From: Pelagibacteraceae bacterium
GTDB taxonomy: Bacteria; Pseudomonadota; Alphaproteobacteria; Pelagibacterales; AG-422-B15
Reading direction: 5' to 3'
NCBI GenBank assembly: GCA_038103905.1
Contig: JAYNZW010000002.1
Location: 10,293-74,292 of the forward strand
Length of the DNA stretch: 64,000 nucleotides
In this document: positions 6,763-52,149 of the stretch, one piece after another
Layout: the number at the start of each line of letters is the position of its first letter
Position numbering within the stretch: position 1 is the stretch's first letter
The notes under the pieces: model-generated
The model's database searches: none
What the model saw: the letters and a program-made list of their open reading frames with translations, nothing else
Told to the model about the DNA's origin: nothing
Program-made: the position numbers and the translations under genes

Positions 6763-7244
6763 TCAAGAGGGACTTTACCCAACGATTTGGTGTTCTTGAT
6801 AGCAAATGCAGTTTTAACACTAGAAATATTTTCATAAGAAGTGACTTGATTAGTTAAGAAGTTATTAAAATCTTCCATGTTTTTTGAAATACATTTGAGT
6901 ATAAAATCCACTTCTCCATTTAACATGTAACATTCTCTTACCTGTTCCCATCCCCAGACAAGTTTCTCAAATTGCCTTAAGCTCTCTTCATTCTGATTTT
7001 TAAGACTTATGAAAATCCATACAGTTAGGTCAAAGCCTAATTTTGATGCGTTTATATTAGCTCTATATTCATCAATAAATCCAGCTTGTTCTAAATCTCT
7101 AACACGTCTTAACGTCGGTGGTGGGGACATATTAATTTTCTTGGCCAAGTCTAAATTAGATATTCGTCCTTCATCTTGTAATATTCTTAATATTTTAAGA
7201 TCTGTACTGTCTATTTGTTTCTTCACCACTATTCTACAGGCCAA
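6759..7244 (-). CDS. Lrp/AsnC family transcriptional regulator
   Basis: N-terminal HTH ([43 protein letters not shown]) followed by a RAM/AsnC-type effector domain. Confidence 0.9.
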
Positions 7245-7855
7245 TCAGTTTTGAATGTTACATAATTAATTTGAATACATCTTCTTTCTTTCTTAATTTT
7301 CTTTTTTTCTAGACCATGCCACGAGTCTTTTTCAGCTGTAAAAATATATCCATAATTATTTTTGTAAGGAATTGTTTTAGCAATACTCAAATCAGGATTA
7401 TAAAAATCAGTTCCAAGATTTTCATCCTCACCATATTTATTCACAAATATTATACTAGACATAAGTTTTTCTTTAATATCACAATGAGGCTCTAGCCAAA
7501 AACAATCTTTATCTTCTTTTTCCTCAACTCGAACATAGTATTTTGCCAAATTGAAATTTAACATTTCTTCCACAATATTTTGACATTCTTTAGATTGCAT
7601 TTCTGAAATTAAATCTCTTAAATGTGGAAATTCATTTTGATTTTGATGATCAACAAAAACTCTTAATTTTGATAATAAGTCTTTTCCAGTTTTATCCCCT
7701 GCTCTTGTTCCATCAAAAATTACTTCTCCAGATGGAATAGGCGTCTTATAGATTTCAATTATTGTTTCTTCAGATAATGGTTCATCAATAGTCCAATAAT
7801 TAAATGGACTTTGGTACTTAGACGATTTTGTTCTTAGAGAATTAATAAGTGTCAT
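7229..7855 (-). CDS. Hypothetical protein, putative 2OG-Fe(II) oxygenase-fold
   Basis: 208 aa. The pattern H-x-D (EPHCD), a distal His (SWHG) and a following Arg (RRCIQINY) has spacing typical of 2OG-Fe(II) oxygenases. The function is inferred from this motif only. Confidence 0.45.
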   Translation of the reverse strand: MTLINSLRTKSSKYQSPFNYWTIDEPLSEETIIEIYKTPIPSGEVIFDGTRAGDKTGKDLLSKLRVFVDHQNQNEFPHLRDLISEMQSKECQNIVEEMLNFNLAKYYVRVEEKEDKDCFWLEPHCDIKEKLMSSIIFVNKYGEDENLGTDFYNPDLSIAKTIPYKNNYGYIFTAEKDSWHGLEKKKIKKERRCIQINYVTFKTDWPVE

Positions 7856-13167: not shown

Positions 13168-14106
13168 ATGATAACAAGCTCTATTTTAGTAATCTTTGGT
13201 CTTCTTTTATTACTTTACTGTGCAGATCGCATGATTATGTTCGCAGACATAATTGCTAAAGAATTTTCACTTTCACCTATCTTAATTGGCCTAACAATCG
13301 TAGCATTTGGAACATCGGCTCCTGAATTAGTCATAACTATAATTGCTTCCTTGAAGGATGTTCCGGCAACTGATGCAATAATTGGAAATGTTATTGGTTC
13401 TAATATAGCAAATCTGATACTAATTTTGGGTGTATCAGCGTTATTCTTTAAAATTGATTTAGGAAAAGTTAAGAATGCTACAAATGCATACTTGTTTTTT
13501 ATAACTTTCTACTTTGCTTTTATTTTTTTTATAGATACAGCATTTAAATTCATTTTTGCAATTGGTTTTTTTATTTTTCTAATAGGTTTTATTTATTACT
13601 TAAAAAATTATCAAAATGAGCTCACTGATGATGACGATGATCATAATCAAATTTTCCAAAAGTCTGTTTATATAAAATTAATATTTACCTTTATTGGAAT
13701 ATTTATTGGTGGAAAATTATTTTTAGATAACTCACTTTATCTGTTTAAATATTTGGGTTTACAAGAGACGGTTATAGGTGTTTCAGTTTTAGCGATTGGA
13801 ACATCACTGCCAGAATTAGCCACAGTAATTTTAGCATATCTTAAAAAGAAAGGAGCAATAGGTATTGGAAATGTTATAGGTAGCAATATTATGAATATAT
13901 TATTTGTTTTCTTACCAGGGCTACTAATTATTCAAGCTAGAGGTTTAATATTTAATATTCCAGAGAATTCTATCTTTCATATTTATACACTGATACTTTC
14001 AACAAGTATGGTTATATTATTATCATTATTAAAAATAAAAATTGGTAAATTCATTGCTTTGTTATTTACTGGATTTTATGCTACTTACATTTGGAACATT
14101 GTATGA
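13168..14106 (+). CDS. Ca2+/Na+ antiporter (CaCA / YrbG-type)
   Basis: Polytopic membrane protein with two alpha-repeats (GTSAPELV...GNVIGSNIANL and GTSLPELA...GNVIGSNIMN). Confidence 0.8.
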   Translation: MITSSILVIFGLLLLLYCADRMIMFADIIAKEFSLSPILIGLTIVAFGTSAPELVITIIASLKDVPATDAIIGNVIGSNIANLILILGVSALFFKIDLGKVKNATNAYLFFITFYFAFIFFIDTAFKFIFAIGFFIFLIGFIYYLKNYQNELTDDDDDHNQIFQKSVYIKLIFTFIGIFIGGKLFLDNSLYLFKYLGLQETVIGVSVLAIGTSLPELATVILAYLKKKGAIGIGNVIGSNIMNILFVFLPGLLIIQARGLIFNIPENSIFHIYTLILSTSMVILLSLLKIKIGKFIALLFTGFYATYIWNIV

Positions 14107-14831
14107 CAAAAAAAAGAACAGTTTTGATTACTGGTGGCGCAAAACGAGTGGGTAAAGAAATAGCCTTATCTCTTGCAAGCAAAGATACAAACCTAATCAT
14201 TCACTACAATAAATCGATAGAAGAAGCCAAGAAATTAAAGCTACTAGTAGAGGATAAAGGGTCTAAATGTGCCTTGATAAAGAACGATCTAAGTAATCAG
14301 AAAAACATAAAAAAAGTCATTGATAGTTCTAAAAAGTTTTTTGGAACAATTAATTGTTTGATAAATAATGCTTCATTATTTTTGAATGACAATGTTGAGA
14401 ATTTTTCAGATAAATTGTGGAATGATCATTTAAATATAAATTTATTAGCACCTGTAAGACTATCTCAAGAATTTAATAAGCAACTACCGAAAAAATCTCA
14501 AGGTCATATTATTAATATACTTGACCAAAATATTTTTAATCCAGATACATCTTTTTTTTCATATAACATATCAAAATCAGCTTTGTATACCGCAACAATC
14601 ATTTTGGCAAAATCCTTTGCTCCAAATATTAGGGTGAATGCAATTGGACCTGGACCAACGATTAAAAATATTCATCAATCAAAAGAGCATTTTGAAAAAT
14701 CAGTAAAAAGTACACCACTTAAAATTGGGTCCCCACCATCTGAAATAGTAAAATCGGTTATATTTTTACTTGAATCCAAGGCTATAACAGGTCAATTTAT
14801 CACTGTTGATGGAGGCGAACATTTAAAATGA
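14103..14831 (+). CDS. Short-chain dehydrogenase/reductase, pteridine-reductase-like
   Basis: Rossmann motif ITGGAKRVG and catalytic YxxxK (YNISK). I moved the start to the ATG at 14103, which forms an ATGA overlap with the antiporter stop (the track start is 14091). It lies immediately upstream of folB and is translationally coupled to it. Confidence 0.75.
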   Translation: MTKKRTVLITGGAKRVGKEIALSLASKDTNLIIHYNKSIEEAKKLKLLVEDKGSKCALIKNDLSNQKNIKKVIDSSKKFFGTINCLINNASLFLNDNVENFSDKLWNDHLNINLLAPVRLSQEFNKQLPKKSQGHIINILDQNIFNPDTSFFSYNISKSALYTATIILAKSFAPNIRVNAIGPGPTIKNIHQSKEHFEKSVKSTPLKIGSPPSEIVKSVIFLLESKAITGQFITVDGGEHLK

Positions 14832-15259
14832 CATTAAAAAATGTTCTTAAATTGAATTCATTAAGGTCTGAAACTGATTTGATTAATAAAAAATCAGGTT
14901 ATGATCTTATTTTTCTAAATGATTTCACCTTACAAGCTAATGTCGGCGTCTACAAACATGAAAAAGAAAAATCTCAACCAATTAAAATTAATGTAGTTGC
15001 TAAAGTTAGGAATCCAAAAAAAATAAATGATAACAATCTACAGAGTGTTGTCTGTTATAATCAAATTTCTAAAAAAATAAAAAAAATTATTAAATCTGGT
15101 CACACAATTCTACTTGAAAAACTAGCAGAAAAGATATTTCAAGAATGTTTTAAAAATAAAAGAATTGAAACAATGAAAATTAGACTTGAAAAACCAGAAG
15201 CAATTGAAGGTGCTGCAGGTGCTGGAATTGAAGTAGAGCGTTCACGCATAGAAAAATGA
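14828..15259 (+). CDS. folB: Dihydroneopterin aldolase family protein
   Basis: 143 aa. The FolB-like core (NVGVYKHEKEKSQPIKINVV) and length fit the tunnelling-fold aldolase. It has ATGA overlaps with both neighbours. Confidence 0.7.
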   Translation: MTLKNVLKLNSLRSETDLINKKSGYDLIFLNDFTLQANVGVYKHEKEKSQPIKINVVAKVRNPKKINDNNLQSVVCYNQISKKIKKIIKSGHTILLEKLAEKIFQECFKNKRIETMKIRLEKPEAIEGAAGAGIEVERSRIEK

Positions 15260-17088
15260 AGAATATTGAAACACTAAAAAAAATAGTAGATCAACAGCCA
15301 AAATCTTCAGGAATTTACAAGATGGTAAATGCGAACGACAAGATACTTTATGTAGGAAAAGCCAAAAATATCCAAAATAGACTTAAAAGTTATCTTAACC
15401 CTAATAGCTTATCTAATCGTATCAAAAGACTTATGTCTCAGGTTGAGAAGATTGATGTGGTTGTTACTGAAACTGAAAAAGAAGCTCTTTTGCTAGAAGC
15501 AAATTTAATTAAAAAAATAAAACCGCAATACAATATTCTACTTCGAGATGATAAATCTTTCCCCTATATTTTGATTAATTATGAGCATGATTATCCTCAA
15601 ATAAAAAAGCATAGAGGAAAACAAAGTATTAAAGGTAAATATTTTGGACCTTTTGCAACTATTTCCTCTTTAGATTATACACTCAAAATACTTCAAAAGG
15701 TTTTCTTATTGAGATCATGTGAAGATACAATATTTGAAAATAGAACAAAACCTTGTCTACTGTTTCAAATAGAGAGATGCAGTGGACCTTGTGTTGATTA
15801 TACAATTAGTAAAGAAGATTACTTAGACTCTGTTAAGAGTGCAGAAGATTTTCTTTCTGGCAAACATAGTAATTTACAAGAAGAATTATCAATAAAAATG
15901 GATAATGAAAGTAATAACCTTAATTTTGAAAAAGCAGCGAGCTACAGAGATAAAATAGTTGCATTAACACAAATTCAAAGTCAACAAAATATAAATTTAA
16001 AAGATATTAAAAATACTGATGTCATTTCAATTGCACGACAAGGCAATAGATCATGTATACAAGTTTTCATATATAGATCAGGTCAAAACTGGGGAAATAG
16101 ATCATATTTTCCAAAACATAGTGATGAAGATCAAACCTCAGAAATATTGGAGAGATTTGTTGTAGATTTTTATACTAAGTACAGTCCACCGCGTGAAGTA
16201 TTAATAAATCATAAGTTAAATGATGAAAACCTAATTGTATCATCATTACATTCTATTTATGACTTTAAAACTAGATTTAATCTTCCAGTTAAAGGCAAAA
16301 AACTAGATATTATTAAGTATGCAAATAGAAACTCTGAAATCTCTCTAAAAAATCACATTGCTCAAAAACTTAGCGACTCTAAAAACCTTGAATCTTTGAG
16401 AGATAACCTTGGAATTAAAAAACATATTGGACGTATTGAAGCTTTTGATAACAGTCATTTATTTGGGAAAAATGCTGTCGGTGCTATGGTTGTATACACG
16501 AGTGAAGGCTTTGATAAGAAGAGTTACCGCAAATTTAATATTGACTCAAAAAATGTTAAATTGAGTGATGATTATGGAATGATGAGACATGTGCTCAACC
16601 GACGATTCAGCAATGAAGCAATTAACGATAATAAAAAACATAACAAACTTCCAGATTTAATTATTATTGATGGTGGCAAAGGACACTATGATTTAGCTAG
16701 AGAAATATTAGATGATAAAGGATTAAATAGTATTAGCGTACTTTCAATATTTAAAGGAGAAGGAAGAAAAGAGTCATTGGATCAAATAATATATGACAAT
16801 CAAAAAGGCTTTATTAAAAAAGATACTTCATCATTTTTCTTTGTACAAAGAATTAGAGATGAGTCTCACAGATTTGCTCTGGGAGCCCATCAGGCAAAAC
16901 GTAAAAAAGATATGAAATCATCTGAATTGGAGGCTATAGATGGACTTGGTCGCATAAAAAGAAAGTTGCTATTAAATCATTTTGGATCTGTTTTACATAT
17001 TAAAAATGCTTCACCTCAAGATCTAATGAAGGTAAAAGGTATCCACAAAGGACTTGCCCAAAAAATATATAATTTTTTTAGAAACTAA
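15256..17088 (+). CDS. uvrC: Excinuclease ABC subunit C
   Basis: GIY-YIG (GIYKMVNANDKILYVGKAKNI), four-Cys cluster (RSCEDT...KPC...RCSGPC), UVR domain (FEKAASYRDKI), and C-terminal endonuclease plus HhH2. Confidence 0.97.
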   Translation: MKNIETLKKIVDQQPKSSGIYKMVNANDKILYVGKAKNIQNRLKSYLNPNSLSNRIKRLMSQVEKIDVVVTETEKEALLLEANLIKKIKPQYNILLRDDKSFPYILINYEHDYPQIKKHRGKQSIKGKYFGPFATISSLDYTLKILQKVFLLRSCEDTIFENRTKPCLLFQIERCSGPCVDYTISKEDYLDSVKSAEDFLSGKHSNLQEELSIKMDNESNNLNFEKAASYRDKIVALTQIQSQQNINLKDIKNTDVISIARQGNRSCIQVFIYRSGQNWGNRSYFPKHSDEDQTSEILERFVVDFYTKYSPPREVLINHKLNDENLIVSSLHSIYDFKTRFNLPVKGKKLDIIKYANRNSEISLKNHIAQKLSDSKNLESLRDNLGIKKHIGRIEAFDNSHLFGKNAVGAMVVYTSEGFDKKSYRKFNIDSKNVKLSDDYGMMRHVLNRRFSNEAINDNKKHNKLPDLIIIDGGKGHYDLAREILDDKGLNSISVLSIFKGEGRKESLDQIIYDNQKGFIKKDTSSFFFVQRIRDESHRFALGAHQAKRKKDMKSSELEAIDGLGRIKRKLLLNHFGSVLHIKNASPQDLMKVKGIHKGLAQKIYNFFRN

Positions 17089-17630
17089 TGAAGCATCTTC
17101 CAAATATACTAACTCTATCAAGAATTTTATTATTACCACTTTTATTATTTATGATTTTATCATCAAGTTATCAATTAAATTTATACTCTGTAATATTATT
17201 CATATTTGTTTCATTAACTGATTTTCTTGATTGATTAATTGCGAGGTATCACGATAGTACATATGAATTTGGAAAAATGCTTGATCCAATTGCTGATAAA
17301 TTATTAGTAGTTGGCGTTCTTACAGTCTTAATGATCAATGGAACCATTGCGCACATTAACATTATTCCAGCACTATTAATTATTTTTAGAGAAATTTTTA
17401 TTTCTGGACTTCGTGAATACGCGGCAAATATTAAGCTTGAAGGCACAATTGATGTTTCTAGCATCGGAAAAGTGAAAACTGCAATTCAAATGATAAGTCT
17501 TGTACTTATACTTTTCAGCGCATCAATAGAATATTCGATATTTATTCTAAATATTGGAATTATTTTATTGTGGGCATCAATGGTACTTGCACTTATAAGT
17601 GGGTATAAATATTACAGGGCAATTTTTTGA
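17088..17630 (+). pseudogene. pgsA: CDP-diacylglycerol--glycerol-3-phosphate 3-phosphatidyltransferase, interrupted by an in-frame TGA at codon 49 (17232-17234)
   Basis: The track lists only 17277-17630. The same frame from ATG 17088 (a TAATG overlap with the uvrC stop) reads MKHLPNILTLSRILLLPLLLF...SLTDFLD*LIARYHDSTYEFGKMLDPIADK. The D-G-x2-A-R-x8-G-x3-D-x3-D motif is complete if the TGA is read as Gly. Gene identity is confident; whether it is a true pseudogene, a sequencing error or a readthrough gene is unresolved. Confidence 0.85.
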
Positions 17631-22838: not shown

Positions 22839-23651
22839 ATGATCTATCTCGATTATCCATCCATTAGTCCAATTATATTTTCTATAGGTTCATTTGAAAT
22901 CAGATGGTATTCAATAGCTTATATAATCGGATTTTTATTTGCATGGCAATATATTAAATTATTGTCAAATAAAAAAGCATTATACGGCTTCAAAACAAAT
23001 CTTGAGAGTCAGTCAATAGATGATCTTATTTTTTATTCTATAATTGGCTTAATTATTGGAGCGCGCCTCGCTTATGTAATTTTTTATAATGGAGGATATT
23101 ATTTAGATAATCCCCTACGTGCATTCTACATATGGGAAGGCGGTTTATCATTTCATGGTGGCTTAGCAGGAATTATAACTGCCATTTTTTACATACAACA
23201 AAAATATAAAATAAAATTTTATATCATAAGTGACTTAATTTGCTCATCTGCCCCTGTTGGGATTTTTTTTGGAAGAATTGCAAATTTTATAAATGGAGAA
23301 TTGTATGGAAGACCTGCATCATCCTTATTTGGCATGATCTTTCCCAATACAGATGGTCAAGTTAGGCATCCAAGTCAATTATACGAGGCCTTTTTTGAGG
23401 GTATCATTATTTTTTTGATACTTAATTTTCTAATCTTTGGATTTAGAAAATTGTCAAATCCAGGATTCATTAGTTCAGTTTTCCTAATCCTTTATGGATC
23501 ATTTAGATTCTTAATTGAATTTACTCGTGAACCTGATGCGCAATTAGGATTTATTTTTAGTTTCTTTACAATGGGAATGCTACTATCGATACCAATGATA
23601 ATTGCAGGATTTATAATGTTGTTCTTTATAAAAAAAAGCAATGCAGATTGA
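22839..23651 (+). CDS. lgt: Prolipoprotein diacylglyceryl transferase
   Basis: Lgt signatures GRIANFINGELYGRP and HPSQLYEA in a polytopic membrane protein. Confidence 0.95.
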   Translation: MIYLDYPSISPIIFSIGSFEIRWYSIAYIIGFLFAWQYIKLLSNKKALYGFKTNLESQSIDDLIFYSIIGLIIGARLAYVIFYNGGYYLDNPLRAFYIWEGGLSFHGGLAGIITAIFYIQQKYKIKFYIISDLICSSAPVGIFFGRIANFINGELYGRPASSLFGMIFPNTDGQVRHPSQLYEAFFEGIIIFLILNFLIFGFRKLSNPGFISSVFLILYGSFRFLIEFTREPDAQLGFIFSFFTMGMLLSIPMIIAGFIMLFFIKKSNAD

Positions 23652-33243: not shown

Positions 33244-33372
33244 ATTTACAATCTCTTATTGAATAATTAGTATTTAATCCCAATATGTTCTTTTATCAAA
33301 AAACCATTGAATTTGTCACCTAAATTTTGTGGCAAGATGACGCATATTAAAAAATTAGATAAGATAAAAATT

Positions 33373-33819
33373 ATGAAATTAGTCATTTTTCAACCTGATA
33401 TACCTCAAAACACTGGTGCAATGATTAGAACCTGTGCATGCTTTGATACAGACATTGAGATTATTCACCCTTGCAGCTTTCCTCTTAATGGTAAACTCCT
33501 TAAAAGATCTGCAATGGATTATGGAAGTTCAATTAAAATAACCGAGCATGATAGTTGGGATGCATTTAGAAAATCACTAAAATCAAAAAAAAGAATTATA
33601 TTGCTCTCTACTAAGGGAAAGATTGATTATACTGATTTTATTTTTCAGAATGATGATTGCTTAATGGTTGGAAGAGAATCTGCCGGTGTTCCTAATGAAA
33701 TCCATAATGAGGTAGATGAAGTTGTTACTATTCCAATCTCTAAATCATCCAGATCTCTGAATGTTTCAACGGCAGCTGCAATTGCTTTATCTGAAGCAAA
33801 AAGACAGCTAAAAGTATAA
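33373..33819 (+). CDS. trmL: tRNA (cytidine/uridine-2'-O)-methyltransferase TrmL (SpoU family)
   Basis: SPOUT motifs NTGAMIRTC, GRESAGVP and LNVSTAAAIAL. Family members begin at the MKLVIFQPDIP-type N-terminus, so I use the ATG at 33373 rather than the track start 33307. Confidence 0.85.
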   Translation: MKLVIFQPDIPQNTGAMIRTCACFDTDIEIIHPCSFPLNGKLLKRSAMDYGSSIKITEHDSWDAFRKSLKSKKRIILLSTKGKIDYTDFIFQNDDCLMVGRESAGVPNEIHNEVDEVVTIPISKSSRSLNVSTAAAIALSEAKRQLKV

Positions 33820-41342: not shown

Positions 41343-43016
41343 CTAAATTCCAAGGATAAGCTTTTTCATAATTCTTTTTGAAATTGATTCATCTTCGTTG
41401 AAATCAAGAGCTTTTTGCCATTGATATCTGGCTTGAGAAAATTTACCTACCTTCCATAATACATCTCCATAATGATCATTGATTGTTGGATCACTTGGAT
41501 CAATCAAAATTGCGTACTCAAATAATTGTAAAGAATCTCTGAAATTACCAATTTTGAAATAGTACCACGCCATACTATCTAAAATATAGGCATCATCCGG
41601 TTTTTGCTTTACTGCTTCCTCTAGCATTTTTCTTGCATCTTCAAATTTGTGAGTGATATCTAAATCTAAATATGTGTAACCTAAATAATTTAATACATCA
41701 GGTTGAAAACTTGAAAAGTGTAAGGCCTTTAAAAGATATTCTTCAGCTTTTTTCCAATCTTTTTTTCTTTCATATGATATGCCTAATTTGTAATAGGCAT
41801 CCCACAAATTGAAACCGGAGTCATTTTTCTTTTTTTCAATAGCACTCATATATGTATCTATTGCAGTATCCCATTCAGAATCATATCTGAATAAATTTCC
41901 TAATGTCATAAGTCCTTGAAAACTATTTTTTAGTAAATCATTGTTTAATAGATAATTTTTTGCTTTTTGATTGTCACCACTCATAGAATAAATATTTACA
42001 ATTTTTAGAGCTGTTATTTCTGCAAGATAATTATCCGATGGTATACTTTTAAAAATTTTAAGTGCAGTTTCATAATCAGATAAAGAAATAAATGTATCAG
42101 CAAGTACAAATTTATTTTCAATAAAACGATCTGATATTGTTGATGCTAAATTAATAACAAAAAATCTTTGATTATCATTGATGCCCGATAACAGTTCGTG
42201 AGTATTAAATAAAGCAACTGATATGCCATCTAACTCATTATTAATTATTCTTTGAGGATTATATTTTGTTAGTCTTTGGATAAAATCTTGATCATATCCC
42301 GATAAATATTTTTCTATAATTTGTTTTTTCTTATCAATTTTATTATTTCTATCAAGAAAACTGAGATAGAGATTAATGATATATATTTCATTATTTAGAA
42401 CTAATGACTGATCAAAATATACTTCTGCTAACTCTGGTTCGTCGACAAAGTCATAAATTAGAGCTTTGTGAAAAATTGTTATGAACTGATAATCATTGGA
42501 ATTTATTGAATCAATTATTTTGATGCTTTTATTAAAATCTCTTTTATTTGCCCAAGTCCAAGCATCTAAAATTCTGGTAAAATTTATCTGAGTTAAGTTT
42601 TTTAATGATAGATTATTAAAATTGTTAGATGCATCATCTGGATTTTTGTTTGAAAGCGCATGAACTCCATTTACTAATTTAGCTTGAAATTCAATATCAT
42701 TTTGACATCTTTTATATAGATTCTTTACACATTCTAATTGTAAAATTTTCTCTGCGTATTTATTGGCTGATGACAAATCACCATTCATTGTCTCAATAAA
42801 TATTAATTTTTCCAATGTTTGTTGTTTATCTGGATCTATCCCATGAATTTTTTTTAAAAATTTAAGAGAAGTATCATAATCATTTACATTGATAGAAATA
42901 TTAGCAATTAAATAGTCTCCAGAATGAGAATTATTTCCTACAGAGTAAAAGGCTATGCTGTGATTTAAAGAAAAAAAATAAAGTATTAAAGAAATATAAA
43001 TAAATTTTTTATTCAC
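41343..43016 (-). CDS. TPR-repeat protein with an N-terminal signal/anchor
   Basis: 557 aa with a hydrophobic N-terminus. Several TPR-like units lie in the C-terminal half (WDAYYKLGISYERKKDWKKAEEYLLKAL, DAYILDSMAWYYFKIGNFRDSLQLFEYAI, and others). Confidence 0.75.
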   Translation of the reverse strand: MNKKFIYISLILYFFSLNHSIAFYSVGNNSHSGDYLIANISINVNDYDTSLKFLKKIHGIDPDKQQTLEKLIFIETMNGDLSSANKYAEKILQLECVKNLYKRCQNDIEFQAKLVNGVHALSNKNPDDASNNFNNLSLKNLTQINFTRILDAWTWANKRDFNKSIKIIDSINSNDYQFITIFHKALIYDFVDEPELAEVYFDQSLVLNNEIYIINLYLSFLDRNNKIDKKKQIIEKYLSGYDQDFIQRLTKYNPQRIINNELDGISVALFNTHELLSGINDNQRFFVINLASTISDRFIENKFVLADTFISLSDYETALKIFKSIPSDNYLAEITALKIVNIYSMSGDNQKAKNYLLNNDLLKNSFQGLMTLGNLFRYDSEWDTAIDTYMSAIEKKKNDSGFNLWDAYYKLGISYERKKDWKKAEEYLLKALHFSSFQPDVLNYLGYTYLDLDITHKFEDARKMLEEAVKQKPDDAYILDSMAWYYFKIGNFRDSLQLFEYAILIDPSDPTINDHYGDVLWKVGKFSQARYQWQKALDFNEDESISKRIMKKLILGI

Positions 43017-43028
43017 TATGTGTCATTA

Positions 43029-44678
43029 TCACATATTTGAATACTTTGGACCACCGCTACCTTCTGGTGTTACCCAATTAATATTTTGTGATGGGTCCTT
43101 AATATCACAAGTTTTACAGTGAATACAATTTTGACTATTAATAACAAATTTTGGATTACTACCATCATCATCTTTGTGAATTTCATATACTCCTGCTGGA
43201 CAATATCTTTGTGCAGGTTCATCAAATTTTTCTAAAGTATATGTAATTGGCAGTTCTTTATCTTCAAGTACTAAATGAACAGGCTGATTCTCAGCATGGT
43301 AAGTACCAGTTAAAAAAACAGAACTTGCTCTATCAAAAGTTATTTTGCCATCAGGTTTTGGATACTCTATTTTCTTACTCTCACTTGCCGGCATAAGTGT
43401 TTCATGATCAGCATGAGAATGATTTAGAGTAAATGGAAGTTTTCCTCTGAAAAGTATCTGATCAATGCCTGTAAGAATGGTTCCAATAAGAAGGCCAAAT
43501 TTTGTAATAAATGGTTTTACATTTCTAGCGGCATGTAGTTCTTTATACGCCCAACTATCCATAAATTTTTTCTCATAATTTTCTAGAGAACTTAGACCAT
43601 CTTTTAAATATTCATCAATTGCCTCTGCTCCAATAATCCCACTTTTCATTGCTGTGTGTGATCCTTTGATTTTAGGCATATTTAAAGTACCGGCATCACA
43701 CCCTATTAATAATGCACCTGGCATGAACATTTTTGGAAGACTTTGAATTCCACCTTCAATTAATGCTCTTGCGCCATAAGAAATTCTTTTACCACCATCT
43801 ATCATTTTTTTAATTCTGGGATGAGTTTTGAATCTTTGAAATTCTTCATAGGGAGATAAATATGGATTTTTATAATCTAATCCGACTACATACCCCATAT
43901 AGATTTGATTATTCGAGGCGTGATATACAAAGCTTCCACCATAAGTATTATTGTCCAATGGCCAGCCCGCAGAATGAAGGATAAGTCCTTCATCATGATT
44001 TGCTTCAGGCACTTCCCATATTTCCTTTAAACCGATTCCATATTGTTGAGGATCAGAGTCTTTATCCAGCTCATATTTTTTAATTAACTGCTTTCCTAAG
44101 TGACCTCTACATCCTTCAGCAAACACAGTTACTTTAGCATGAAGTTCAATTCCCGGCTCATAGGTATCTTTTTTTTGTCCATTAATATCAATACCCATAT
44201 CATTTGTTGCAATACCTTTTACTGAGTTGTCATCATTAAACAAAACCTCTGATGCAGCAAACCCAGGATATATTTCTACCCCAAGATTCTCAGCTGTCTG
44301 ACCCAGCCATCGACAAAGATTTGCTAAGCTTATTATATAATTGCCTTTATTGTGCTGAACCGGCGGCAAAAGCCATGCAGGCCAGCTAAAGCTGCTTTTC
44401 TCAGATAGTAAAAAAAGAAATTTTTCCTTAACAACTTTAGTCTTTATTGGACAACCCTCCATATTTTTCCAATCAGGAAATAGTTCATCAAGAGCTTTAG
44501 TTTCAAATACATTTCCGCTGAGTATATGAGCTCCAACTTCTGAGGCTTTTTCAACCACACAGACGTTTAAGTCTGGATTGAGTTGTTTCAATTTTATTGC
44601 ATTTGCTAAACCCGCAGGTCCAGCCCCAACAATAACAACATCATATTCCATTGACTCACGTTGCATATCGGTACTCAT
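43029..44678 (-). CDS. Electron transfer flavoprotein-ubiquinone oxidoreductase
   Basis: FAD motif VVIVGAGPAGL, full-length collinearity with ETF-QO, and the C-terminal 4Fe-4S motif NCIHCKTCDIKDP. Confidence 0.95.
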   Translation of the reverse strand: MSTDMQRESMEYDVVIVGAGPAGLANAIKLKQLNPDLNVCVVEKASEVGAHILSGNVFETKALDELFPDWKNMEGCPIKTKVVKEKFLFLLSEKSSFSWPAWLLPPVQHNKGNYIISLANLCRWLGQTAENLGVEIYPGFAASEVLFNDDNSVKGIATNDMGIDINGQKKDTYEPGIELHAKVTVFAEGCRGHLGKQLIKKYELDKDSDPQQYGIGLKEIWEVPEANHDEGLILHSAGWPLDNNTYGGSFVYHASNNQIYMGYVVGLDYKNPYLSPYEEFQRFKTHPRIKKMIDGGKRISYGARALIEGGIQSLPKMFMPGALLIGCDAGTLNMPKIKGSHTAMKSGIIGAEAIDEYLKDGLSSLENYEKKFMDSWAYKELHAARNVKPFITKFGLLIGTILTGIDQILFRGKLPFTLNHSHADHETLMPASESKKIEYPKPDGKITFDRASSVFLTGTYHAENQPVHLVLEDKELPITYTLEKFDEPAQRYCPAGVYEIHKDDDGSNPKFVINSQNCIHCKTCDIKDPSQNINWVTPEGSGGPKYSNM

Positions 44679-48355: not shown

Positions 48356-48820
48356 ATGAATATTAAAAAATATAACGGTTTAATATCAGTATCAAATTTT
48401 TTTCCAAAATCTGTGAAAGAGCTTTTACGTAAAAGAGGTTTTTTTGAGTTAGAGCTATTAAAAAACTGGATTGAAATAGTTGACGAAAAATATGCTAAAA
48501 AAACACTTCCAATAAAAATAAGATCCACAAATAGCAATAATGGGGCAAACTTAACTATTAAAGTTGATCCAAGTATCGCCTTTGGATTTGAACATGATAG
48601 AGAGATAATTAAGAATAAAATTAATTCTTATTTTGGATATAGTGCCATAGAAAAAATCACAATAATTCAGCATCGATTTAAAAATGAACATATAAATAAC
48701 GATAACAATGAGTTAGGCAAATTAGCTAAGAAACAAAGTAAAATATATAATCAATTAGATGAATACCCTAAATTAAAAAATGCTTTTGAAAAGATATCAA
48801 AAAAAATATCAAAATTCTAA
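48356..48820 (+). CDS. DUF721 (DciA-like) protein
   Basis: The pattern LLKNWIEIVDEKYAKKTLPIKI...GANLTIKVDPSIAFGFEHDREIIKNKINSYFGYSAIEKITI fits DUF721. The call is from pattern recognition only. Confidence 0.55.
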   Translation: MNIKKYNGLISVSNFFPKSVKELLRKRGFFELELLKNWIEIVDEKYAKKTLPIKIRSTNSNNGANLTIKVDPSIAFGFEHDREIIKNKINSYFGYSAIEKITIIQHRFKNEHINNDNNELGKLAKKQSKIYNQLDEYPKLKNAFEKISKKISKF

Positions 48821-48867
48821 TTTATGACAAATTTTGAACTTATTAATTTAATCAATTAAAAAAACTG

Positions 48868-48896
48868 TTATAAAACGCTAAAAAATTGATTATAAT
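48868..48896 (+). promoter_or_regulatory. Candidate sigma-70 promoter for the dsbA-like/smc/atp gene string
   Basis: TTATAA (48868-48873), a 17-nt spacer, then a perfect TATAAT (48891-48896), about 40 nt upstream of the ATG at 48936. AT-rich DNA yields such matches easily. Confidence 0.3.
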
Positions 48897-48935
48897 CAAG
48901 ATATTGTATTAAATTTTATTACCTAAGTACTAAAT

Positions 48936-49553
48936 ATGGGCTACTTAAGAACTCCAATCCAAGCAATTCTCATTATTCTTATTTCGGTATTCTATTCGCT
49001 ATCGATTGAATCTTCGTTTGCAAATAAAGAGTTGAAAGGATTTGAAATTGGAAGCGCTGAAGCCCCTATAACTATTATTGAATACCGATCACTTACTTGC
49101 AGTCATTGTGCAAATTTTTCAAAAAATGTTTTTCCTGATCTAGAAAAGAATTACATCAGTACAGGTAAAGTAAAATTTGAATTCAGACCTTTTGTATTAA
49201 ATGCTGTCGATCTCAATGCATTCAAATTACTTAATTCGGTCAGTGAAAAAGATTTTGTAGCGTTAGATAAAATGCTCTTTAAAGATCAAGATAAATGGCT
49301 AGTGACTAGTGACTCTGATAAAATTTTAGAGAATAGTACTAATGCACTTAAAAAATATGCCTTATTATTTGGACTCTCTGAGGAGAAGTTTGACTCTGTA
49401 TTAAAAGATAAAGACCTAGAGGAATGGATTTTGTCGATGAGGGTTGAAGGTTCTAAACAATTTAATATTCAATCGACACCTTCATTTGTAATTAATGGCA
49501 AAGTTTTTTCTGGCAATATGCCTTTTTCTGAATTTGAAAAAATACTGAACTAA
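48936..49553 (+). CDS. DsbA-family thiol:disulfide oxidoreductase (periplasmic)
   Basis: Signal peptide plus the thioredoxin-fold active site CSHC in the context YRSLTCSHCANF. Confidence 0.8.
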   Translation: MGYLRTPIQAILIILISVFYSLSIESSFANKELKGFEIGSAEAPITIIEYRSLTCSHCANFSKNVFPDLEKNYISTGKVKFEFRPFVLNAVDLNAFKLLNSVSEKDFVALDKMLFKDQDKWLVTSDSDKILENSTNALKKYALLFGLSEEKFDSVLKDKDLEEWILSMRVEGSKQFNIQSTPSFVINGKVFSGNMPFSEFEKILN

Positions 49554-49554
49554 A

Positions 49555-52149
49555 ATGAAATTTAAAAAAATAAAAATTCTTGGATTTAAAAGTTTTGTAG
49601 ATCAAACTGATATTGTAATTGAAGAAGGACTTACAGGTATTGTAGGGCCCAATGGATGTGGAAAATCAAATGTTGTAGAATCTTTAAGATGGTGCATGGG
49701 CGAAACATCTCCAAAAATTATGAGAGGTTCAGGAATGGAAGATGTAATTTTCTCTGGAACTTCTGACAGACCTGCAAGGAACAATGCTGAGGTCACTATT
49801 TTTTTAGACAATAAAGATAGAAATGCACCTGCAGAGTTTAACAATGATGAAGAAATTCAAATTCGTAGAAAAATAGAAGTAGAAAAAGGTTCTGAATATA
49901 GAATTAATGGAAAAGAGGTAAGGGCTAGAGATGTTCAAAGATTATTTGCTGATCTTTCAACTGGAGCTCATTCACCCTCTCTTATCAGTCAAGGAAGAGT
50001 TGGTGCTTTAATAAATGCTAAGCCTATCGATCGAAGAGCAGTGCTAGAAGAAGCTGCGGGGATTTCTGGATTACATTCGAGAAGACATGAAGCAGAGCTT
50101 AAACTCAAAGGTGCTGAAAATAATCTGCAAAGGTTGAAAGATATTATGAGGCAATTAAACACTCAAATAAACAATCTTCAAAAACAAGCAAAACAAGCAG
50201 AAGCTTACAAGTCTATTTCAGAAGAAATTACTCGTCTCGAGGGCATCGTAACATATTTAAAATGGTACAATCTAAAAGAATCCTTTGAAAAATCTAATAC
50301 AGACTTAAAGTCAAGTGAGCAATTAATACAAAAATATACACTAGAAGTTACGCAGGCTACAAATGATCAAGCCAAAGCAAATGAAAAAATACAACCTTTG
50401 AGAGAAAAGGAGATAGAAGCCGCTGCTAAGTTAAATAGAATTAACCTTGAAAGAGAAAGTCTTGATAAAGAAGAAGAAAGAATAAAAGAATTAAAAACAT
50501 CACTAGAACAGTCAATTCAGCAAAATATTGGTGATTATGAAAGAGAACAATATCAGTTAGAAAATGCATTAAGAGATTTGGAAACATTAAATACAAAAAA
50601 ATCTGAGTTAGGCTCAGAAGTAAGCCTTCAAGACTTTGATAACGATCAAGTTGCTGGCTTGAAAGAAGAAAAAAAACAACTCGAAGCTCAAATTGATGAG
50701 TTAGAAGAAAATATAGAAAAATATAATTCAATTAAACTATCTAAGAGAGATGATTGGCAAAGGTCTATCATAAGTGAAGAGAATCTGAGATCTCGAGAAT
50801 CAACTCTTAAAGAAGTTGAAGGATATGATGATCCTAAAAATTGGACACAAACTTTTTCGGAAAAATTTTATAATAGTCTAAAAGATATTTCAGATAGAGT
50901 AATCAATGCAAAAGAATTAACCGAAGATGCCAAAAAATCTTATGATAAAGCCAGTGGTGATGCAAAAGATGCTGTAACAATGTCAATGCAGCTCAGAGAG
51001 AATTTAAGACAAAAAGATGTAGAAGAGAAACATAGTGATTGGAATTATGAATATCAAAGACTGAATAAAAATATACAATCTTCTAGAAAGCAGATTGATG
51101 AATTAAAACAAAGAAGAGTTAAATCAGAAGAAGAATTAAAAAAAATTATTAATAGACCAGAAGAAATTGCCCAAAAAAGAGGTCAACTAATTGAAACAAA
51201 AGGCTTTGCTGAAAAAGAAAGACAGTTTGCAGCAGATAGGCTGGCTGAAGCAGATAATGAGTTAAAAAAATACGAAAATGTCCTAAGAAAAGCTCAAAAT
51301 GATCTGGCAAATGTTAGAGAGTCAAAGGGTAGAACTGAAGCAACAAAAGAATTGGCCGAAAGTAGGCTTTCTGAATTAGAGTCAGAGTCATTAGAAAAAT
51401 ATAATTGTAGACCTGACTCAATAATATCAAAGTTATCCATTACGGATGATTTAGAAACATTGCAAAATAATTTTGAAAGAAATGAGACTAGGCTGGACAA
51501 ACTTAAGCAACAAAGAGATACGCTTGGTGTCGTTAACTTAAGAGCAGATTTAGAAACAAAAGAAATAGAGCAGGAATTAGAAAAAATGAATAATGAAAAA
51601 ACTGATTTAGAAACTGCAATTAAAAAAATGAGAGAGTCAATTGAAGAACTAAACAAAGAAGGAAGAGCAAGGCTCTTAGAGGCATTTGAAGTTGTAAATA
51701 AACATTTCAAAGAAGTATTTATAAAGTTGTTTAACGGTGGAAAAGCTCATTTAGAACTTGTAGATGCCGATGATCCATTAGAGGCCGGTCTTGAAATGAT
51801 GGTTAGTCCACCAGGAAAAAAATTGCAATCGATGTCGCTTCTATCAGGTGGCGAACAGGCTTTAACAGCAATGTCATTAATCTTTGCAGTATTTTTAACT
51901 AATCCATCACCTATTTGTGTACTTGATGAGGTTGATGCTCCACTCGATGATGCAAATGTTGAGCGTTTTTGTAACCTTCTTGATGATATTGCTGAAAAAA
52001 CCAATACTAAATTTTTGATTATTACTCACCATGCACTAACAATGTCACGCATGGATAGATTGTTTGGCGTCACAATGGCTGAAAGAGGTGTGAGTCAAAT
52101 AGTTTCTGTTGATCTTAAAAAAGCTGAAGAAATAGGTGCAGTTGCTTAA
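49555..52149 (+). CDS. smc: SMC chromosome segregation ATPase, unusually short (864 aa) with no recognisable hinge
   Basis: An N-terminal head typical of alphaproteobacterial SMC (KSFVDQTDIVIEEGLTGIVGPNGCGKSNVVESLRWCMGE; ARDVQRLFAD; RRAVLEEAAGISGLHSRRHEAELKL). The C-terminal head carries the signature LSGGEQ and Walker B ICVLDEVDAPLDDAN. Confidence 0.85.
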   Translation: MKFKKIKILGFKSFVDQTDIVIEEGLTGIVGPNGCGKSNVVESLRWCMGETSPKIMRGSGMEDVIFSGTSDRPARNNAEVTIFLDNKDRNAPAEFNNDEEIQIRRKIEVEKGSEYRINGKEVRARDVQRLFADLSTGAHSPSLISQGRVGALINAKPIDRRAVLEEAAGISGLHSRRHEAELKLKGAENNLQRLKDIMRQLNTQINNLQKQAKQAEAYKSISEEITRLEGIVTYLKWYNLKESFEKSNTDLKSSEQLIQKYTLEVTQATNDQAKANEKIQPLREKEIEAAAKLNRINLERESLDKEEERIKELKTSLEQSIQQNIGDYEREQYQLENALRDLETLNTKKSELGSEVSLQDFDNDQVAGLKEEKKQLEAQIDELEENIEKYNSIKLSKRDDWQRSIISEENLRSRESTLKEVEGYDDPKNWTQTFSEKFYNSLKDISDRVINAKELTEDAKKSYDKASGDAKDAVTMSMQLRENLRQKDVEEKHSDWNYEYQRLNKNIQSSRKQIDELKQRRVKSEEELKKIINRPEEIAQKRGQLIETKGFAEKERQFAADRLAEADNELKKYENVLRKAQNDLANVRESKGRTEATKELAESRLSELESESLEKYNCRPDSIISKLSITDDLETLQNNFERNETRLDKLKQQRDTLGVVNLRADLETKEIEQELEKMNNEKTDLETAIKKMRESIEELNKEGRARLLEAFEVVNKHFKEVFIKLFNGGKAHLELVDADDPLEAGLEMMVSPPGKKLQSMSLLSGGEQALTAMSLIFAVFLTNPSPICVLDEVDAPLDDANVERFCNLLDDIAEKTNTKFLIITHHALTMSRMDRLFGVTMAERGVSQIVSVDLKKAEEIGAVA

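Follow-up and report, generated by a model that had tools for sequence, protein, structure and literature searches.

An in-frame TGA at the catalytic glycine codon of pgsA in a SAR11 contig is very probably an error of the deposited assembly

Introduction

The interrupted gene described here can be set beside draft assemblies in which local consensus errors, in the form of clustered bases miscalled where coverage is thin, give rise to false pseudogenes, beside the PgsA family to which its product belongs, and beside the systems in which UGA is decoded as an amino acid. UGA specifies Gly in the code known from Gracilibacteria and SR1 (genetic code 25) and Trp in code 4; bacterial UGA readthrough is effected mainly by near-cognate tRNA-Trp. 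In E. coli pgsA is essential because lipoprotein processing requires phosphatidylglycerol (PG), and the gene becomes dispensable once lpp and rcsF are removed (10.1101/2022.10.21.513317). A study on a SAR11 isolate describes the replacement of membrane phospholipids by non-phosphorus lipids under phosphate starvation, and an agt gene in the same isolate that makes the glycolipids MGDG and GADG (PMC4796936).

The DNA analysed here, referred to as the window, is a stretch of 64,000 nucleotides with a G+C content of 30% and densely packed genes; the nearest species representatives in the genome collection belong to the Pelagibacterales (family Pelagibacteraceae; SAR11), with PgsA identities of at most 77%. 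Its pgsA gene resembles known PgsA (TIGR00560; PF01066; PDB 7DRJ) in a length of 180 amino acid residues, a score above the equivalog cut-off, the spacing of the catalytic motif and a site 3′ of uvrC. It differs in having TGA as codon 49 and Tyr as residue 59, both of which are private to this record. The likeness to consensus errors in draft assemblies extends to the private variants, their packing into about 50 bp, a non-evolutionary spectrum, changes at invariant residues and the involvement of two genes, the difference being that the patches in the window contain no indels. With UGA recoding systems (code 25, code 4 and selenocysteine) the locus shares solely the TGA where Gly belongs, whereas the window uses TGA as a stop, has no SECIS-like fold and carries a stop that is not conserved. 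Judged on these features, the closest known kind of case is the false pseudogene that arises where the consensus of a draft assembly is locally wrong.

The pgsA locus

Translation of the window gave a single pgsA frame of 180 codons. The features of the locus are as follows:

15256..17088, + strand: uvrC, intact (Pfam GIY-YIG, UvrC_RNaseH and HHH domains)
17088..17630, + strand: pgsA, CDP-diacylglycerol--glycerol-3-phosphate 3-phosphatidyltransferase (translation, PF01066, TIGR00560 and 7DRJ alignment)
17232..17234, + strand: in-frame TGA, read as GGA (Gly49) in relatives (comparison with relatives)
17277..17630, + strand: 117-residue fragment annotated in the public record, starting at Met64 (P0106, 100% identical)

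The ATG at 17088 overlaps the uvrC stop codon TAA (17086-17088) as TAATG, and pgsA is most likely translationally coupled to uvrC. The sole break in the frame is the TGA at codon 49 (17232-17234), the terminal codon of the frame being a second TGA at 17628-17630. When translated through, the region reads ...SLTDFLD*LIARYHDSTYEFGKMLDPIADK..., which places the TGA (asterisk) exactly at the G of the motif DxxDGxxAR-x8-G-x3-D-x3-D. The remaining motif residues are all encoded, namely D45-x2-D48-[G49]-x2-A52-R53-x8-G62-x3-D66-x3-D70, but the deposited pgsA does not contain the full catalytic motif in one open frame, its G being a TGA stop. Beyond the altered sites discussed below, no decay was found elsewhere in the gene.

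Profile and structure comparisons were carried out with the 180-residue product in which Gly was supplied at codon 49. This product matches Pfam PF01066 (CDP-OH_P_transf) with an E value of 3e-32 and 112.5 bits against a cut-off of 22, and the NCBIfam pgsA equivalog TIGR00560 with 144.4 bits against a cut-off of 109.1; alignment to Staphylococcus aureus PgsA (PDB 7DRJ) places DFVDGYLAR opposite DFLD*LIAR. The first-pass annotation had described a pgsA frame at 17088-17630, coupled to uvrC through TAATG and broken by a single TGA at the motif glycine, and translation, both profiles and the structural alignment bear out the frame, the identity of the gene and the position of the stop. In the public record, by comparison, pgsA is annotated as the 117-residue piece alone, which is missing D45, D48, G49, A52, R53 and G62.

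Comparison with relatives

Contigs from close relatives were drawn from metagenomes in ENA, JGI and Logan, some sequenced with short and others with long reads. Over 2.4-12 kb, five contigs from short-read metagenomes (L002-L005 and L007) show 99.1-99.35% DNA identity to the window. Closer still are L088-L093, six reef contigs assembled from long reads and 0.47-1.39 Mb in length, which reach 99.7-99.8% across 20.5 kb; the remainder of the window is matched by other stretches of these reef contigs at 99.6-99.9%. The long-read reef genomes are deposited under ERZ28548062-91. The uvrC-pgsA adjacency is present in all of the SAR11 relatives retrieved, and the order uvrC, pgsA and a class IV aminotransferase on the opposite strand is kept in L002, L003, L006 and the six reef contigs.

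The position occupied by TGA in the window is GGA in 11 of 11 independent close contigs (99.2-99.8% DNA identity) and TGA in none. Farther afield, Gly49 is found in 132 of 132 homologous PgsA proteins of 180-181 residues; the full motif is present at 79 of 80 genome loci, ranging from SAR11 to other proteobacterial lineages, and the codon is GGN at every one of these (79/79). A scan of JGI metagenomes with a 26-mer made degenerate (G/T) at the critical base returned one match, which equals GGA. The allele is thus private to the record. The first-pass annotation had proposed examining the codon in the closest genomes and in metagenomes, and had held that GGA in sister genomes would reduce the stop to a sequencing error; every sister sequence reads GGA.

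Exact-product look-ups were made for several peptides. The 48-residue N-terminal peptide, with either Leu or Phe at position 43, has no match on record, and neither have the full-length Gly49 haplotypes (Leu/Phe43 combined with Tyr/Ser59, with Asp56 and Tyr149 retained), so that the exact intact allele of this strain was not recovered. The ORF at 33307-33819, taken from its TTG start, likewise gave no match, this gene having probably been called from a different start. The sole other 117-residue product derives from a 576-bp contig (L001) that begins at the Met64 ATG (17277) and so stops short of the TGA codon. Contigs of the same strain found through the neighbouring aminotransferase end at 17497 (L117) and 17526 (L118), and none spans 17232. 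The breakpoints of these three contigs inside pgsA adjoin polymorphic sites at 17516 and 17532. All three come from short-read assemblies of this strain; their ends within pgsA mark the locus as hard to assemble and provide circumstantial support for thin coverage there. The strain is also present, at 100% identity over several kb, in the metagenomes SRR26337556, SRR26337557, SRR26337568 and ERZ27295410, and 17254A, 17516C and 17532T are linked markers for it.

Clustered substitutions

Substitutions were scored as window-unique when they set the window apart from at least four near-identical genomes, a comparison that covered 56,900 bp (7083-64000). In all there are 33, of which 12 fall inside two patches, eight in 7504-7555 and four in 17216-17263. 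The densest 52-bp span holds eight, whereas random placing of 33 substitutions gives four or more per 52 bp with P = 0.00025 (permutation); the substitutions are clustered. No window-unique indels were found, barring unaligned bases where the compared stretches end, and the lack of indels in the patches argues against long-read noise. Comparison of the first 7 kb with two reef genomes yielded one extra, isolated difference and no patch. The two patches are:

7504..7555, - strand: patch 1, eight window-unique transversions in 52 bp, within a 208-residue hypothetical gene at 7229-7855 (comparison with relatives)
17216..17263, + strand: patch 2, 17216 C>A (F43L), 17232 G>T (G49*), 17263 C>A (S59Y) and 17254 G>A (G56D) (comparison with relatives)

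Within patch 2, the change at 17254 is a known population polymorphism that also occurs in L002 and L007. Leu at position 43 occurs in other SAR11, and F43L taken by itself could, as far as the alignment indicates, be a natural variant. Ser59 is kept in 132 of 132 homologues, and the window reads Tyr.

Patch 1 is of the same kind but lies in an unrelated gene. In the 208-residue hypothetical protein it changes NINLANSYVRVEVIADKDGFW to NFNLAKYYVRVEEKEDKDCFW, and the residues affected are strongly conserved: among 109 homologues at 65-97% identity, S106 and I113 are each kept in 109/109, and V112 and G118 each in 108/109. Against its nearest database protein the product of the window has exactly seven differing residues, all of them those of patch 1.

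The character of the substitutions inside the patches also differs from that of the remaining ones. Transversions account for 11 of 12 changes in the patches against 10 of 21 outside (Fisher p 0.02; 0.005 without 17254), nonsynonymous changes for 11/12 against 11/21 (p 0.03), and the new base is A or T in all 12 against 10 of 21 (p 0.002). The sole transition within the patches is the polymorphic site 17254; the 11 transversions comprise six G:C>T:A and five A:T>T:A. Natural divergence, or import by recombination, is expected to bring many synonymous changes, transitions, and residues already known in the family, and the patches show none of these marks. Their spectrum is a non-biological one. 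No known DNA polymerase, the translesion enzymes included, has an error rate high enough to produce 15% divergence within 52 bp.

Other sources of localised variation were considered for the patches. A diversity-generating retroelement was ruled out, G and C positions being mutated as well as A. Recombinational import from a divergent lineage was likewise rejected, the new residues occurring in no homologue and nearly all of the changes being nonsynonymous transversions.

From these comparisons we consider it highly probable that the TGA in pgsA came into the deposited assembly through a technical error; we infer that read quality or assembly, rather than a mutation in the cell, was the cause. 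A short stretch of poor-quality sequence would have entered the consensus, probably at thin coverage; GGA would have been turned into TGA and two or three adjacent bases miscalled in the same stretch, and patch 1 (7504-7555) would represent a second stretch of miscalled sequence in the same assembly. It is the recurrence of such odd substitutions as a patch in an unrelated gene that specifically indicates technical error, and the spectrum of the patch substitutions that points to a low-quality read stretch and not to evolution or recoding. The organism itself most likely carries an ordinary, intact pgsA of 180 codons.

Against technical error we counted the restriction of the newly introduced bases in the patches to A and T, and the consideration that a true mutation confined to a single sequenced cell would likewise be private to its record.

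TGA as a stop codon

TGA is a working stop in the window, where it ends 12 of the 67 long ORFs, including those for the SDR, FolB, the response regulator, Lgt and PgsA. This is in line with the view, already taken in the first-pass annotation, that UGA has not been reassigned genome-wide. The TGA stops which it had listed for these five genes were all recovered; of the "several" ATGA overlaps that it had mentioned, two were found, at the SDR/folB and folB/uvrC junctions. Apart from pgsA, no gene is split in the 64 kb.

Downstream of the pgsA TGA no SECIS-like structure was found: the folding energy of the 3′ region is -11.6 kcal/mol (z = +0.5), and 138 of 200 shuffled sequences fold at least as well. 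Leaky readthrough at UGA would insert Trp and not Gly, and would therefore not restore the PgsA motif. On this evidence a genome-wide reassignment (code 4 or 25) is contradicted by the use of TGA as a stop throughout the window; selenocysteine recoding by the missing SECIS-like fold and by the Gly found in 132/132 homologues at this position; and programmed readthrough by the sense codon present in all relatives (GGA in close ones and GGN at 79/79 loci).

Alternative explanations

The first-pass annotation had offered a base-call or assembly error, a recent nonsense allele and tolerated readthrough side by side without ranking them. The GGA of the sister sequences and the second patch favour an error, and readthrough is disfavoured by the Trp that it would be expected to insert where 132/132 homologues have Gly.

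G49* and the changes around it may truly have been present in the sequenced cell or clone, as a lesion of very recent origin that was probably lethal or at least strongly deleterious; this we regard as unlikely. The allele does stand in the public record (P0106), single cells can harbour mutations that have not been purged, and G:C>T:A, the class tied to oxidised guanine, makes up six of the 11 transversions in the patches. Clustered damage might have been the cause, or a damaged template amplified in a single-cell genome, which would amount to an artefact arising before sequencing. The remaining five transversions, however, are A:T>T:A and carry no oxidative signature, and no known mutational process accounts for two patches of about 50 bp, up to 15% divergent, in a genome that is otherwise 99.8-99.9% identical to its relatives. 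The TGA allele was found in no other data searched. The essentiality of pgsA in E. coli, where PG is needed for lipoprotein processing, also speaks against such a lesion, as does a PG-consuming gene that is intact in the window:

22839..23651, + strand: lgt, intact (PF01790, 238 bits)

The substrate of Lgt is phosphatidylglycerol, from which it follows that the organism needs PG. That both patches are real lesions, left by some novel process of localised hypermutation or extremely error-prone patch synthesis that writes A/T transversions, is a proposition to which we attach very little weight.

Even slighter is the chance that the loss of pgsA is real and tolerated, either because a second PG-phosphate synthase is encoded elsewhere or because the cell lives free of PG on non-phosphorus lipids. 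The lipid exchange described for the phosphate-starved SAR11 isolate (PMC4796936) would be compatible with such a life, and so would the survival without pgsA of E. coli that also lacks lpp and rcsF (10.1101/2022.10.21.513317). Against it, a six-frame hmmsearch found no second CDP-alcohol phosphatidyltransferase in the 64-kb window, genomes that are 99.8% identical retain an intact pgsA under purifying selection, pgsA is otherwise free of decay, and lgt, the product of which uses PG, is intact. A tolerated loss would also leave the patch in an unrelated gene unaccounted for.

Least credible of all is the decoding of UGA (by programmed or leaky readthrough, as selenocysteine, or through a UGA=Gly code) to yield full-length PgsA, for which the stop does sit exactly at the Gly codon, one base from GGA, but against which stand the termination of 12/67 ORFs by TGA (pgsA included, at the same end point as its homologues), the failure of any relative to conserve the stop, the want of a SECIS-like fold downstream and the finding of no suppressor tRNA in the window, its only tRNA being tRNA-Gln.

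Conclusions

A miscalled stretch in the consensus thus remains the preferred explanation of the TGA. It has practical consequences, in that the public record annotates a truncated PgsA that is predicted to be catalytically dead. Taken at face value, this would imply an abundant ocean bacterium without phosphatidylglycerol synthesis. If the patches were real lesions, the cell would have been without functional PgsA at the time of sampling; a true stop would bear on the question of whether SAR11 can do without PG, and nothing in this analysis supports that. Since at least two stretches of the same assembly (7504-7555 and 17216-17263) are very probably corrupted, its pseudogene and gene-loss calls should be checked against population data. 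As for the biology of this SAR11 lineage, the truncated annotation should not be counted as a loss of phosphatidylglycerol synthesis, for the gene, to judge from its relatives, is almost certainly intact.

Window-unique substitutions

7504-7555, minus strand: patch of window-unique transversions within the gene for a hypothetical protein (ORF 7229-7855)
48606-49726: looser group of eight window-unique variants in 1.1 kb
42830-43113: looser group of five window-unique variants in 283 bp

The 52-bp patch contains eight transversions, all of which are private to the window when it is compared with the genomes of its close relatives. They alter seven residues of the 208-aa product, and these lie at sites that are invariant or nearly invariant among 109 homologues. 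The corruption here is of the same kind as that found around the in-frame stop codon of pgsA. In the two looser groups transitions and transversions are mixed, and approximately half of the changes are synonymous; rather than errors, these seem to be normal variation between strains or short tracts of recombination.

Reference genomes and gene starts

Long-read metagenomes from reefs contain SAR11 genomes that are nearly complete and share 99.7-99.9% identity with the window (L088-L093 and L100-L112; ERZ28548062-91, "_pilon" contigs with sizes of 0.47-1.39 Mb). Frameshifts interrupt many genes in these genomes, such as uvrB, uvrC and lgt in L088 and L090, a pattern resembling the indel noise of long reads. 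As a reference, their substitutions were usable and their indels not.

14091-14831: SDR gene, TTG start, 246 aa, by mechanical ORF prediction

The product is 246 aa in the window from the TTG start versus 242 aa as called in the relatives, a trivial start-codon ambiguity situated where the gene overlaps the tail end of the Na/Ca exchanger gene.

The same strain in metagenomes

Four metagenome contigs (L096, L113, L114 and L117), which originate from Logan runs SRR26337556, SRR26337557 and SRR26337568, exhibit 100% identity to the window across 1.7-3.5 kb. Since L096 possesses the window-specific variants 37548T and 37571T, the strain represented by the window is present in these runs. Short-read contigs of the same strain break within pgsA: L001 starts at 17277, while L117 and L118 end at 17497 and 17526, respectively. 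Two polymorphic sites, 17516 and 17532, lie close to these breaks, and microdiversity seems to have fragmented the assemblies at the pgsA locus.
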